In this document: positions 10,569-62,099 of the stretch, in pieces | Layout: every line of letters begins with the position of its first letter | Position numbering within the stretch: position 1 is the first letter of the stretch | Assembly (NCBI GenBank): GCA_903825105.1 | Contig: CAIJZI010000006.1 | Coordinates: 87,368 to 151,367, forward strand | Length of the DNA stretch: 64,000 bases | Source: an uncultured bacterium | GTDB taxonomy: Bacteria; Patescibacteriota; Minisyncoccia; Phycocordibacterales; Phycocordibacteraceae | Reading direction: 5' to 3' | Program-made: the position numbers and the translations under genes | The notes under the pieces: model-generated | Told to the model about the DNA's origin: nothing | Databases searched by the model: none | What the model saw: the letters and a program-made list of their open reading frames with translations, nothing else

Positions 10569-10574
10569 GTAAAT

Positions 10575-10612
10575 AAAAAAACCGCGCCCACTAGGGGCGC
10601 GGTTTTTTTATT
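10575..10612. terminator. bidirectional rho-independent terminator between rpmA and rplI
   Basis: ccgcgccc-acta-gggcgcgg stem flanked by A-run and T-run. Confidence 0.8.
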
Positions 10613-10614
10613 TC

Positions 10615-11058: not shown

Positions 11059-11169
11059 ATGCTCGTAGCATATCTTATTGCCTACTTATAGTCAAAATTC
11101 CAAGGTTGAACCTTGGGAAAAAAGCCCAGCATCGCTCTGAAGCAATGCTTTATTTATAAAATACAAGTC

Positions 11170-16773: not shown

Positions 16774-16794
16774 TTAGGACATCCGATGTCCTAA
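16774..16794. repeat. palindrome TTAGGACATC-C-GATGTCCTAA between convergent recR and sigma-factor stops (copy 1 of 2)
   Basis: Perfect 10-bp inverted arms; identical core recurs at 18828..18846. Confidence 0.8.
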
Positions 16795-18772: not shown

Positions 18773-18794
18773 AGTAGTATTCCCGCAAAAAGAA

Positions 18795-18825
18795 AAGCCC
18801 TCACTAGGAGGGCTTTTCTTTTTAT
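18795..18825 (+). terminator. rho-independent terminator
   Basis: gccctc-actag-gagggc followed by a T-run. Confidence 0.8.
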
Positions 18826-18848
18826 ATTAGGACATCCGATGTCCTAGT
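18826..18848. repeat. palindrome TATTAGGACATCCGATGTCCTAG (copy 2 of 2)
   Basis: Same core as 16774..16794, again at a convergent gene junction. Confidence 0.8.
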
Positions 18849-21651: not shown

Positions 21652-21672
21652 TGCCGACACTAGGTGTCGGCA
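21652..21672. repeat. palindrome TGCCGACAC-TAG-GTGTCGGCA
   Basis: Perfect 9-bp arms. Confidence 0.6.
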
Positions 21673-21708
21673 TCGACAACTTAGGTGTCTCGCCGCTAAA
21701 TAAATTCT

Positions 21709-21731
21709 AGTGAGAGCCTAAAGCTCTCACT
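21709..21731. repeat. hairpin AGTGAGAGC-CTAAA-GCTCTCACT (copy 1), abutting the relE stop
   Basis: 9-bp stem; second copy at 22362..22392. Confidence 0.8.
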
Positions 21732-21740
21732 ACCCGCGTT

Positions 21741-22337: not shown

Positions 22338-22358
22338 TACCGAAGTCAGACTTCGGTA
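22338..22358. repeat. palindrome TACCGAAGTC-T-GACTTCGGTA upstream of the TA promoter (member of the TACCGAA..TTCGGTA family)
   Basis: 10-bp perfect arms; related copies at 40868..40883 and 41126..41141. Confidence 0.8.
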
Positions 22359-22361
22359 TTT

Positions 22362-22392
22362 AGTGAGAGCTTGAGAGCCTAAAGCTCTCACT
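22362..22392. repeat. hairpin AGTGAGAGC(TTGAGAGC)CTAAAGCTCTCACT (copy 2, with internal 8-nt duplication)
   Basis: Copy of 21709..21731. Confidence 0.8.
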
Positions 22393-22405
22393 ACCAAAAA
22401 GTAAA

Positions 22406-22437: not shown

Positions 22438-22445
22438 TGGGAAGG

Positions 22446-22688
22446 TCAGACCTTCCCATTTCCCGGCTTCTCTTCGGTGTTGACTACATATCGTGAAGGC
22501 TCCGGGAAACCCCCTCTAAATTCAACCGACAAAATGGCCATTCCCGTTACACTAAGATTGCCGTTGGTTGCTTTGAAGGCGGCCAATGCTTCAGGAAACA
22601 ACTGCGACACAAACTGTCCTTCGAATTGTTTCCGAAAAACAAAAACGCCGTGCCCCAAACCTTCAACTACAAGATGGCCATACTCCAT
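22446..22688 (-). CDS. hypothetical small protein
   Basis: 80-aa ORF; no motif recognised; weak. Confidence 0.3.
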   Translation of the reverse strand: MEYGHLVVEGLGHGVFVFRKQFEGQFVSQLFPEALAAFKATNGNLSVTGMAILSVEFRGGFPEPSRYVVNTEEKPGNGKV

Positions 22689-25496: not shown

Positions 25497-26066
25497 ATGA
25501 TGGATAAAGTCGATTGGTCTGAATGGTATGACCTGACACGAGCGAAGTCTCCAAGCAGGTTGCTCGTAGAAGCTCTCTCATATGTTAAAGATACGGGAAA
25601 AGTAATCGATATTGGTGGCGGTGCATTAAAAGATACTAGGTATCTTTTGCAAAAAGGATTTGATGTAACTGTCATTGATAACAGTCCTCTTTTGGAGAAA
25701 GAGGCTAGCGCAATTAATAATGAACGATTACATCCATTCGTTATTTCATTTGAGGATTTTCACTTCCCCATCAATGACTATGTTTTAGCATCGGCAATGC
25801 AGTGTTTATCTTATTGTGAGCCCGCACATTTTAGTCGCGTGATTATTGATATTAAATCCTCACTAAAAGAAGGCGGAATATTCTGTGGGCAGATATATGA
25901 TGAATATGACCAAAATTCAAAAAGTCTCCACAAAACATACAAAACTGCTGACGAGATAAGAGAATATTTAAAGGATATGGAGCTGATTTTGTTTAAAGAA
26001 GAAGAAACGGAGGAGGGCCGAACAAAACACTGGCGTATTTATAACTTTATCGCTCGAAAAAAATAG
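25497..26066 (+). CDS. class I SAM-dependent methyltransferase
   Basis: Motif I VIDIGGGALKDTRYLLQKGFDVTVIDNS. Confidence 0.65.
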   Translation: MMDKVDWSEWYDLTRAKSPSRLLVEALSYVKDTGKVIDIGGGALKDTRYLLQKGFDVTVIDNSPLLEKEASAINNERLHPFVISFEDFHFPINDYVLASAMQCLSYCEPAHFSRVIIDIKSSLKEGGIFCGQIYDEYDQNSKSLHKTYKTADEIREYLKDMELILFKEEETEEGRTKHWRIYNFIARKK

Positions 26067-39522: not shown

Positions 39523-40767
39523 TTATGAAATGAGTTCTGCGCGTTCGGCTTTATTTACTTCTCCACTTGCGCGATCCACAATTTCAAATTTCCCCGTATT
39601 CACCGCATCTTTCCCAACCACAATTCTTTTTGGAATACCAAGCAAATCAGAATCAGCGAATTTTTGTCCCGCGCTCATATCGCGATCGTCGTAGAGAACT
39701 TCAACGCCAGCATTTTTTAAATCATTGTAGAGCGCATCGGCGAGTTGCGAAATTTCATCGCCTTCTTTCCCGAGAGAAACAATATGATACTTAAGCGGCG
39801 CGACTGATTCTGGCCAGACGAGCCCTTTATCGTCAGCAAATACCTCAACAATCGTGCCCATCAAGCGCCCGAGGCCGATACCATAACTGCCCATAAAAAC
39901 AGGCGTTGTCTTCCCTTCTGCATCCTTATAAGACAGTCCGAGTGCTTCAGAAAACTTCGTCCCGAGCGTGAAGATGTTGCCTACTTCAATCGCTTTTTCT
40001 TCTTTTAAGTTTTCTTTTTTAATGCCCATTTCTTCATACACTTTTTCATCACCATAGACTTCTTTATTCACTGCTAGTTTTTTTGCATCATCGACATAAA
40101 TAGCGTCTTCTCCCGTGCTACAGACGGTCTGGAATTCGTGTGAATACGGGCTAAATGATCCGCCAGAAGCGTAAGTAAGATAAGTTTTATCGCCGATGCC
40201 AACGCGCGCAAAAATATTTTCATATGCCCGCTTCGCTTTTTCATAAAATGCATCGTGCTCGGCCTTATCTTTTGAAAATGAATACAGATCTTTCATCGTG
40301 AACTCGCGGGTGCGCATAATGCCCGACTTCGCGCGCGTCTCATTTCTAAACTTGTCTTGGAATTGGTAGACATAGCGCGGCAGGTCGCGATACGAAGAGA
40401 TGTGATCGGTCATCAGTCGCGTGAGCGGCTCTTCGTGAGTGAGGCCGAGGCCAACTTCCCCGCCATTTTTAAACGCCGTTTTAAACCACACATCAACCTT
40501 TTCATCACTCCAACGATCAGTCGCCTTCCAGATCTCCGGATCCTGCAGCGCCGAGAGCGACACTTCTTCTCCACCAATCGCGTTCATCTCTTCACGGATA
40601 ATCGCGCGGATCTTCTCAATCACACGCAGACCCAAAGGCAGATAATCATACACACCCGCCATCTCTTTATGAATGTAGCCCGCGCGCACGAGGAGCTGTG
40701 CGTTCTTCGCGACTTCGTCAGCCGGTGCTTCGCGGCGCGTTTTGGTAAAAAGTTCGGATTGCTTCAT
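39523..40767 (-). CDS. proS: prolyl-tRNA synthetase, bacterial-type N-terminus but no INS editing domain
   Basis: FTKTRREAPADEV..AGYI N-terminus; class II motifs; the anticodon-binding domain follows the catalytic core directly. Confidence 0.85.
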   Translation of the reverse strand: MKQSELFTKTRREAPADEVAKNAQLLVRAGYIHKEMAGVYDYLPLGLRVIEKIRAIIREEMNAIGGEEVSLSALQDPEIWKATDRWSDEKVDVWFKTAFKNGGEVGLGLTHEEPLTRLMTDHISSYRDLPRYVYQFQDKFRNETRAKSGIMRTREFTMKDLYSFSKDKAEHDAFYEKAKRAYENIFARVGIGDKTYLTYASGGSFSPYSHEFQTVCSTGEDAIYVDDAKKLAVNKEVYGDEKVYEEMGIKKENLKEEKAIEVGNIFTLGTKFSEALGLSYKDAEGKTTPVFMGSYGIGLGRLMGTIVEVFADDKGLVWPESVAPLKYHIVSLGKEGDEISQLADALYNDLKNAGVEVLYDDRDMSAGQKFADSDLLGIPKRIVVGKDAVNTGKFEIVDRASGEVNKAERAELIS

Positions 40768-40867
40768 ATCGATATAGTATATGCCCCGTAGGCACTCTGC
40801 GCAAAAGGAAAAGCCCCGCAATGAAGCGGGGCGAAATGTGGGACATCGGAAGTCCCACATTTTGTTC

Positions 40868-40883
40868 TACCGAAGTTTCGGTA
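40868..40883. repeat. palindrome TACCGAA-GT-TTCGGTA
   Basis: 7-bp arms; sits immediately upstream of the -35 of the ncRNA promoter. Confidence 0.8.
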
Positions 40884-40887
40884 AATG

Positions 40888-40916
40888 TTGACTTATTTTT
40901 AACAATGGACTATTTT
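40888..40916 (+). promoter_or_regulatory. sigma-70-like promoter TTGACT-17-TATTTT
   Basis: Hexamers with a 17-nt spacer, 6-8 nt before the predicted 5' end. Confidence 0.55.
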
Positions 40917-40922
40917 GTCAGC

Positions 40923-41117
40923 GGAGGTTCAGGCAACGCGAAGGTTCAAATCCACGCGAACCAATGACTCACTTGGCACTCGGCCGCAAATAGGCCTTTA
41001 AGATCCGGCAAGCTGCCGCTACTGGATTGGCCCAGCCCAGTTGCCAAGAAGAGACTTTTCAAAGGTCGCCTGAACTTCCCCAAATCATAGCCGCACTTCG
41101 GTGCGGCTTTTGTTTTT
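40923..41117 (+). ncRNA. candidate structured ncRNA (about 195 nt), class unknown (6S-like length)
   Basis: Promoter upstream; terminator agccgcac-UUCG-gtgcggct then T-run; a 15-bp closing helix pairs the 5' end (gaggttcaggcaac) with the 3' end (gtcgcctgaacttc); internal hairpins. Confidence 0.45.
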
Positions 41118-41125
41118 CATAATTC

Positions 41126-41141
41126 TACCGAAACTTCGGTA
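41126..41141. repeat. palindrome TACCGAA-AC-TTCGGTA
   Basis: Reverse complement of the copy at 40868. Confidence 0.8.
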
Positions 41142-41145
41142 AGTT

Positions 41146-42264
41146 TTACCCAACGATTTTGAAAATATCGTGCGCGGTGACGACGAGCATGAGGATAATA
41201 AGAAAGGCGAAGCCGAGAGCGTTTACCACTTTAAAAACTTTTTGATTTATCGGTCGGCGAATAATGCTTTCAATAATGACGAACAGAAGCCGCCCGCCGT
41301 CGAGCGCGGGGATTGGAATGAGATTTATTAAAGCGAGATTAATAGAAATGACGGCAAAAAAAGAGAGGATGTTCCCGAAACCTTGTGAAGAGTATTCGCC
41401 AACGGCATTCACTATCCCTACCGGCCCCGCGACCTGTGACAAGTCAGCACGAAGCATAAAAGCACTCGCGAAAAAATGTACAAGCCCTTCTGTGGTTAAA
41501 ACGATCGTGCCCCAGGTGAGCGATGCTCCCTCATTTATCGCTTTTAGAAATGATACGGGGACAACGCCGACAGTCGCGACTTCGACGCCGAGCGTGTAGG
41601 TGTTTAATTTTGTCGGAACAACGCCGAGCGCGGGCGTCGCGGTAATTATTTTTTCAATTCCATTGTGTTTAATGGTGAGAGCAATAACTTCGCCATTACT
41701 CGCCGCGACGAATGATGAGAAGCTTGTTGTATCAATAAAATGCCCCTCGACTCCGCTCTGGGCAAACCATTCACCATTCGAATATTTCGCGCTTAAAATA
41801 GAATCACCCGCAGTGAGCCCGGCGCGCGCAGCAGGAGTGTTTGGCAAGACATTTGCGATAGCGAGCTCAACATTTTTAGCACCAGCGATTTCATTTTGAG
41901 AAAGTGCTCGCGGCGTCCCAGCGACAAGCGCACTCGTGATAAGAATGTAGGCGAAGACGAGATTCATCGTGATGCCGGCTATGAGAACTACGGCCTGCGC
42001 GAAACGGTTTTTTGAAGTGAATGCTCGCGGATCCTTTTTCTCCGGTTCAGAGTCTTCACCAAATATTTTCACGAATCCACCAAAAGGCAGCCAGTTAAGC
42101 GAAATAATTGTCTCGCCGATCTTCCCTATCTTCGCGATGCGCGGCGGATAGCCGAGACCAAATTCATCGACACGCATCTTCGCTACCTTCGCCGCAACAA
42201 AATGCCCCACCTCGTGCACAAGGATAAGCACGACGATGCCAACAATAAAAATTAAAATATTCAT
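41146..42264 (-). CDS. rseP: site-2 protease RseP-like zinc metalloprotease (M50) with PDZ domain
   Basis: HEVGHFVAAK (HExxH), PDZ region, multiple TMs, LDGG motif. Confidence 0.85.
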   Translation of the reverse strand: MNILIFIVGIVVLILVHEVGHFVAAKVAKMRVDEFGLGYPPRIAKIGKIGETIISLNWLPFGGFVKIFGEDSEPEKKDPRAFTSKNRFAQAVVLIAGITMNLVFAYILITSALVAGTPRALSQNEIAGAKNVELAIANVLPNTPAARAGLTAGDSILSAKYSNGEWFAQSGVEGHFIDTTSFSSFVAASNGEVIALTIKHNGIEKIITATPALGVVPTKLNTYTLGVEVATVGVVPVSFLKAINEGASLTWGTIVLTTEGLVHFFASAFMLRADLSQVAGPVGIVNAVGEYSSQGFGNILSFFAVISINLALINLIPIPALDGGRLLFVIIESIIRRPINQKVFKVVNALGFAFLIILMLVVTAHDIFKIVG

Positions 42265-61850: not shown

Positions 61851-62099
61851 GTTGAATTATCGTTATGGATAAATCCGGGTCGGCGGGTAGCACAAAACCC
61901 GCCACCAGGAGCCCTTGCGGGCCTATAGGAGTTTCCCCCTATAACGCATCGAACGCCCTGATGACGGGTTTTCTAGGTTCGATGCGATTTGCGACCATGC
62001 CATTGACCGAAGTCACTGGTTTAGGTCGGTACTAGCCAAAGCTAGTACCTTAAAGATATCTCACTTTAGGGGTTCTGCGAAGACCTTGCTTGAAGACAA

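Follow-up and report, generated by a model that had tools for sequence, protein, structure and literature searches.

The palindrome TACCGAA…TTCGGTA occurs three times in the 64,000-nucleotide stretch of DNA analysed here (the window). Two copies bracket a candidate non-coding RNA (ncRNA) gene and the third lies upstream of a toxin-antitoxin promoter; the question is what kind of element this palindrome is. A first-pass annotation, made from the sequence alone, suggested either the operator of a dimeric transcription factor or the ends of a tiny MITE-like element. The palindromes are very probably members of a REP family spread by a RAYT-type Y1/HUH transposase, and not regulator sites. As REPs, they would be short DNA hairpins that a RAYT-type Y1/HUH tyrosine transposase recognises, cuts and spreads on single-stranded DNA, and the three window copies would be products of its past activity.

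A pattern search of the 64-kb window for TACCGAA-N(0-12)-TTCGGTA gives exactly three matches, at the positions originally reported (22338, 40868 and 41126); 100 dinucleotide-preserving shuffles of the window give no match at all. The single half-sites occur 8 and 9 times in the window against about 4 expected, so the signal is the palindromic pairing and not the heptamer. All three copies are intergenic.

22338-22358, no strand assigned: P3c, the canonical 21-nt copy TACCGAAGTCAGACTTCGGTA (pattern search)
40868-40883, or 40865-40884 with flanks, plus strand: P3a, a 16-nt REP derivative TACCGAAGTTTCGGTA (pattern search and flank consensus)
41126-41141, or 41123-41142 with flanks, plus strand: P3b, a 16-nt REP derivative TACCGAAACTTCGGTA (pattern search and flank consensus)

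The half-sites are separated by 2 nt in P3a and P3b and by 7 nt in P3c; the two 16-nt copies have five central bases fewer than the canonical unit. As a REP unit, TACCGAAGTCaGACTTCGGTA, P3c can form a 9-bp stem with a 3-nt loop in single-stranded DNA. The 21-nt canonical form folds at -8.0 kcal/mol (z -6.1), and the hairpins of P3a and P3b are weaker (-4.2 kcal/mol). P3c is palindromic as first described, but the T quoted for its centre is the minus-strand reading; the plus strand has A. The terminator scan calls none of the three copies as an intrinsic terminator, and no T-run follows any of them.

P3c stands between the promoter region of phd-relE, a toxin-antitoxin pair (Phd with a ParE/RelE protein), and a second palindrome at 22362-22395. 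The phd promoter, TTGCAT-17-TACAAT, was read by hand and is not called by the promoter scan; P3c is located 26 nt upstream of it, in keeping with the distance of about 30 bp first given. P3c and its neighbouring hairpins are unchanged in a 99.0%-identical strain (L207), which shows only short-term stability. The same-species contigs (L081, L082 and L207-L209) are short and stop before the rseP-proS spacer, in which P3a and P3b lie. L081 and L082, from separate samples, stop at the same point within rseP, window position 41578; this shared end may be a strain-level breakpoint or an assembly problem.

The rseP-proS spacer is 376 nt long in the window. Both genes are on the minus strand, with the proS start near 40767 and the rseP stop codon TAA at 41146-41148; frr follows rseP. 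Besides P3a and P3b, the spacer contains the following features.

40813-40832, minus strand: terminator-like hairpin GCCCCGC-loop-GCGGGGC with a T-run, just upstream of the proS promoter (hairpin and terminator scan)
40834-40862, minus strand: second hairpin, AAATGTGGGAC-loop-GTCCCACATTT, next to P3a (hairpin scan)
40888-40916, plus strand: promoter-like site TTGACT-17-TATTTT (promoter scan)
40923-41084, plus strand: structured RNA of about 160 nt with a 12-bp closing stem (folding)
41089-41108, plus strand: intrinsic terminator with a T-run (terminator scan)
40888-41118, plus strand: the bracketed cargo as a whole (promoter-like site, ncRNA and terminator), not a member of the repeat family

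The ncRNA candidate proposed between the two copies has a promoter-like site and a terminator, and positions 40915-41120, a range which takes in the terminator too, fold at -78 kcal/mol with a z-score of -4.0. P3a was said to abut the -35 of its promoter, and it ends 4 nt before the TTGACT hexamer; P3b is 4 nt downstream of the stop codon of rseP. That the two copies bracket the candidate is correct, but the segment length of 257 bp is not; the gap is 242 bp, and the distance from start to start 258 bp. The candidate matches no Rfam family at gathering thresholds, nor at E-values up to 10. Neither nhmmer nor a single-sequence covariance model (R1) finds a homologue or second copy in about 2 Mb of related DNA; it appears to be an orphan, single-copy in all DNA searched. 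No decayed transposase gene is found between P3a and P3b by tblastn or by a profile search of the six-frame translation.

The relatives recovered, together with a LOOT RNA match, put the window in Patescibacteria, near Kaiserbacteria. The rseP-proS gene order is kept in about 70 fetched loci. In many relatives the spacer is just 39-47 nt long (44 nt in L083, the closest available, at 72% RseP identity) and consists of a conserved proS promoter, TTTTGC(C/G)-N17-TATACT, 7-9 nt before the proS ATG. Set against these short spacers, about 330 nt of the spacer in the window are a lineage-specific insertion, which takes in both palindromes and the ncRNA. Other lineages have unrelated inserts at the same spacer, including small ORFs, hairpin doublets (e.g. 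at 11133 and 11163 in L067) and structured-looking DNA; no Rfam families were found in the spacers of seven of these. The spacer appears to be a hot spot for insertions. The distance of 7-9 nt from promoter to ATG is found both in the window (promoter at 40770-40815) and in the spacers of L001-L083, which suggests that the proS mRNA is leaderless or near-leaderless.

These comparisons bear on the proposed operator, to which a dimeric regulator (e.g. Phd or the partner of an ECF sigma factor) would bind to control the ncRNA and phd-relE promoters. The sequences are palindromic, and promoter-like sites are close to two of them, with 4 nt to one -35 and 26 nt to the other, inferred one. However, the half-site spacings of 2 and 7 nt differ by 5 bp, half a helical turn, and P3b is located after a stop codon and not at a promoter. 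About 70 relatives, L083 included, lack the motif in their orthologous rseP-proS spacer; absence from orthologous loci had been named at the outset as evidence against an operator. Its one occurrence in 1.29 Mb of related loci is inside a holB-like reading frame (L017). In many further contigs, described below, the same sequence lies in frame within housekeeping genes, immediately follows stop codons or flanks transposase genes, and the operator explanation is extremely unlikely.

Related loci have perfect palindromes of their own, which are repeated and frequently form doublets whose centres are flipped. In contig L003, four copies of ACTTGGAAGTCcGACTTCCAAGT are found around and inside a gene matching Pfam Y1_Tnp, and homologues of this gene carry the JGI name 'REP element-mobilizing transposase RayT'. 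The L003 repeat has the core GAAGTCnGACTTC in common with P3c; metagenome contigs were therefore scanned for TACCGAAGT-N(0-5)-ACTTCGGTA. The scan found the pattern in at least 120 contigs, with 135 matches listed. Among the matches listed, 92 of 135 have the 21-nt form TACCGAAGT-NNN-ACTTCGGTA, and the centres CAG/CTG, TAA/TTA and CGG/CCG alone make up 88 of these 92; chance matches would scatter evenly across spacings and centres. The same REP is present in contigs of relatives of the window organism (L154, L088, L117, L148 and L124).

In its canonical form the unit reads TTC/T-TACCGAAGT-NNN-ACTTCGGTA-A; its core is 21 nt long. Many copies bear a CTAC/GTAG tag, formed by a C before or a G after the core; three of the four tag bases lie in the stem. 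Among the matches listed, the tag is at exactly one end in 36 of 78 non-redundant copies (46%) and at both ends in none of the 78. The flank consensus TTC-core-A was obtained from the 36 tagged copies among these matches, oriented by the tag. P3a and P3b have the tag and P3c does not; the plus-strand flanks of P3a and P3b, gTTC…Aat and aTTC…Agt, agree exactly with TTC…A.

By this flank marker P3a and P3b are in direct orientation, despite their flipped centre. Centre and flank orientation are uncoupled in the family: among the matches listed, TAA is found 11 times and TTA 11 times, and CTG 8 times and CAG 4 times, so the GT/AC flip between P3a and P3b says little. An invertible switch acted on by a serine recombinase, as might be read from a 2-bp asymmetric centre and inverted sites, was rejected; the gene driven by the promoter is itself inside the segment, centre and flank orientation are uncoupled as just described, and P3c has a different centre. 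Integron attC-like and Xer/dif-like sites were rejected on architecture alone.

The flanks also bear on the proposed MITE-like element, in which P3a and P3b would be the terminal inverted repeats of a DDE-transposase MITE carrying the ncRNA. Two near-identical 16-nt sequences do bracket 242 bp, and comparison with other lineages shows this segment to be an insertion. However, each end is a complete palindrome which is also found alone, at 22338 and in many contigs, and the copies are direct and not inverted when judged by their flanks. Target-site duplications were to be looked for next to 40868 and 41141; there are none, and the flanks shared by P3a and P3b belong to the element itself, since they match the family consensus. 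The roughly 2 Mb searched yielded no further copy of the element. The mobile-element direction of the original suggestion was correct, but what it took for terminal inverted repeats are complete REP hairpins in direct orientation; a MITE in the strict sense has next to no likelihood.

The genic context of the family is distinctive. Among the matches listed, 19 of 37 extragenic copies lie no more than 15 nt downstream of the stop codon that ends a long ORF, as P3b does, and 44 of 81 copies lie within long open frames. The in-frame copies are found at homologous sites of essential or housekeeping genes and encode peptides of the form YRSxTSV or xPKSDFGx. A 21-nt REP or a REP doublet is in frame in the following genes.

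AlaRS: L114, L135 and L191
HisRS: L086, L118, L122, L137, L159 and L171
Dus: L119, L181 and L197
MnmA: L115
holB: L017, L088 and L148

Inverted REP doublets with a 3-5 nt spacer are present in L119, L167, L181, L190, L197 and L200. In MnmA (L115 and L062), one site is occupied by two different palindrome families in different genomes.

Palindromes at the 3' ends of genes could also be ordinary host RNA hairpins of local origin, either 3'-UTR stabilisers or terminators without a U-tract, with no mobility. The order stop codon, palindrome, intrinsic terminator recurs in the window at rseP, the DEAD-box helicase gene, relE and orf22446, and the position of P3b, 4 nt after a stop codon, would suit this explanation. 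However, an identical 21-nt sequence is found at non-homologous sites of many genomes and also inside coding regions, and no window copy is followed by a U-tract. Host hairpins of local origin would also not be expected to bracket a dedicated transposase gene, as this palindrome does. This explanation is very unlikely.

Among the matches listed, five contigs (L107, L156, L136, L133 and L096) contain a Y1_Tnp gene that the palindrome flanks on either side, at distances of 8-36 nt from the ends of the gene. In L107, L156 and L136 the flanking palindromes are identical to P3c. The five genes are 69-100% identical to each other and score 34.8-39.6 bits on PF01797 (Y1_Tnp; cut-off 23); the HUH histidines and the catalytic tyrosine are invariant in alignments of 42 and of 60 sequences. 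The palindromes that flank the homologues in L204 and L206 are AGCGAAGTCaGACTTCGCT and TATCGAAGTCaGACTTCGATA, stem variants in which compensatory changes keep the pairing. L204 is a Kaiserbacteria MAG from the same assembly as L011.

A sequence search of the PDB with the transposase gives a weak ISDra2 match alone (E 0.12-0.5); a fold search was therefore needed for a clear answer. Among PDB entries, the AlphaFold model (pLDDT 89) best matches 4ER8 (E 1.9e-5), a structure of the REP-associated tyrosine transposase of E. coli with a REP hairpin bound; the TnpA proteins of IS608 and ISDra2 follow. The score on the NCBIfam REP_Tyr_transpos equivalog is only 27 bits against a cut-off of 80, and the flanked transposase appears to be a distant relative of the proteobacterial RAYTs.

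The transposase gene occupies the same site, between genes for S1 and pth, in seven contigs from Kaiserbacteria-like genomes; this single syntenic chromosomal site points to vertical inheritance. PMC5581495 gives a single, syntenic, vertically inherited locus as the pattern of RAYTs rather than of insertion sequences. The S1-pth site falls outside the window, and no Y1 transposase gene is found in the 64 kb by tblastn or by a profile search of the six-frame translation.

The Y1_Tnp gene of L003 (14140-14805), like the proteins P0121-P0240, belongs to a large Patescibacteria family with more than 5600 homologues. Its members contain two in-frame internal copies of their own flanking palindrome. 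The peptides encoded by these copies, such as QLGSPTSKL, QLGGETPKL and QLGSEASKL, have residues which covary exactly as the DNA palindrome demands.

The system shares many features with the known REP/RAYT systems, represented by E. coli TnpA_REP (PDB 4ER8) and the REPIN-RAYT systems of Pseudomonas. In both, a short hairpin-forming repeat is found near the 3' ends of genes and forms inverted doublets with short spacers, here of 3-5 nt in several contigs; the GTAG/CTAC motif at one end of many copies may be a further likeness. Both also have a Y1/HUH transposase gene with copies of its own repeat on either side (in related contigs here, and not in the window) at one syntenic chromosomal site in relatives, and the fold match to 4ER8 concerns this flanked transposase. 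Unlike known REPs, the unit described here is a perfect palindrome of only 21 nt. Its tag extends into the stem, whereas the known tag is unpaired, and fewer than half of the copies among the matches listed bear it; about half of the metagenome copies among these matches lie in frame inside genes. The transposase appears only distantly related to proteobacterial RAYTs, and the hosts, which are Patescibacteria, have very small genomes. In contrast to a REPIN, the pair in the window is direct by its tag, is 242 nt apart and encloses an ncRNA gene in place of a short spacer or a transposase gene.

Other known elements are similar in part. In IS200/IS605 elements and in PATEs, derivatives of these that lack the gene, a segment likewise stands between two similar subterminal hairpins of the same orientation; a Y1 HUH enzyme acts on single-stranded DNA, and no target-site duplication is formed. 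However, no cleavage or target tetranucleotide can be defined here, the window unit is single-copy, and the fold search places the flanked enzyme closer to RAYT than to the TnpA of IS608 or ISDra2. Rickettsia palindromic elements and intragenic REPs (Di Nocera et al. 2013, PMC3733652) are also in-frame palindromes in housekeeping genes, including those for tRNA synthetases. This likeness holds for the contigs of relatives, as the window copies are all intergenic, and the elements here are much shorter (7 codons).

A further reading refines the REP explanation and does not exclude it. The 274-bp unit REP-promoter-ncRNA-terminator-REP (40865-41142 with flanks) would be a non-autonomous cassette mobilisable by a RAYT, inserted in the rseP-proS hot spot; it would have an IS200-like frame with the ncRNA gene in place of the transposase gene. 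The segment is an insertion, as the basal spacer of 39-47 nt in many relatives, the closest one included, indicates. The tags of P3a and P3b are direct and the cargo reads away from the first copy; the same arrangement surrounds the transposase gene in L096 and L133, though not in L107, L156 or L136. P3a and P3b also share a derived 16-nt form which was not found elsewhere, in 663 kb of REP-bearing contigs.

Against this, the ncRNA is single-copy in the roughly 2 Mb searched with nhmmer and the covariance model, and there is no remnant of a transposase gene between P3a and P3b. The two extra hairpins of the insertion stand outside the pair. All other REP pairs 0.5-0.8 kb apart in the fetched contigs bracket a Y1 transposase gene (in L178 and L189 they overlap it). 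Central deletions in perfect palindromes could recur independently, and the shortened hairpins may be poor substrates. Movement of the whole cassette is a tentative idea and has a small chance of being correct.

The broader REP explanation leads to more specific expectations for the pair. Because P3a and P3b share the derived 16-nt form, one was probably derived from the other; two independent insertions followed by the same deletion are probably a less likely history. As their hairpins are weaker, both copies are probably poor transposase substrates now. The pair would then bracket a lineage-specific insertion bearing an orphan ncRNA gene.

When transcribed, P3b would fold into a hairpin in the 3' UTR, 4 nt past the stop codon of rseP. 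E. coli REPs reportedly affect mRNA stability or translation termination (Liang, Rudd and Deutscher 2015), and by analogy the P3b hairpin may affect one or the other for rseP. Any effect of P3a on the ncRNA promoter would be an inferred one.

Several observations count against the REP explanation. There are only three copies in 64 kb, two of them of the shortened form, and the window contains no transposase gene. The transposase of the related contigs falls well below the REP_Tyr_transpos cut-off, and the tag is present in only 46% of the non-redundant copies among the matches listed. The intragenic location of about half of the metagenome copies is unusual for REPs, though precedented: REPs near the 3' ends of genes, intragenic copies (in tRNA synthetase genes too) and REP-flanked RAYT genes have been described in other phyla (PMC3733652). 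The element type itself is well known; no description of REP/RAYT in Patescibacteria, CPR or Parcubacteria was found in the literature searched.

The REP explanation removes a false regulatory lead, as no operator or regulon should be built on TACCGAA…TTCGGTA. It would mean that REP-RAYT systems are retained in the very small, streamlined genomes of Patescibacteria. The 21-nt unit is tolerated in frame in essential genes of relatives, which may explain the dominance of the 7-codon length. For annotation, REP hairpins could account for contig breaks and for odd 7-residue inserts in CPR proteins. The interest of the locus comes mainly from these in-frame copies and from the REP-bracketed orphan ncRNA, which is a concrete candidate for cargo movement by RAYT-type enzymes. 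If the cassette reading is true, hairpin ends of the REP-copying kind have captured and moved a regulatory RNA gene in a genome-reduced Patescibacterium.

The window contains two other palindrome families. The sequence TTAGGACATCcGATGTCCTAA forms a direct pair at 16774-16794 and 18828-18846. This pair stands between recR and the DEAD-box helicase gene and encloses the genes of an ECF sigma factor, a PAS-like protein and a PG-binding protein. Its core, GGACATCcGATGTCC, recurs in the rseP-proS spacer of L017; in L154, the recR-helicase interval instead contains a Y1 transposase gene flanked by another palindrome. A third palindrome, TAGTGAGAGCctaaaGCTCTCACTA, stands in direct orientation on either side of the ParE/RelE-Phd toxin-antitoxin pair, at 21708-21732 and 22362-22395. 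The right-hand copy adjoins P3c directly and contains an internal duplication of 8 nt. Each of the three palindrome families in the window brackets a module, possibly an accessory one.

Other hairpins and RNAs were noted in the window. The sequence TGGGAAGGTCaGACCTTCCCA at 22438-22458 has a GTCaGAC centre as in P3c, and the end of a possible 80-aa ORF overlaps it. Loops centred on CTAG (actag or tag) are found in several terminator hairpins; 10571-10613, 18787-18823, 21652-21672 and 25628-25648 are listed with them. A LOOT RNA (RF03000) is located on the minus strand at 61910-62027, with 78.8 bits against a gathering score of 46.4.
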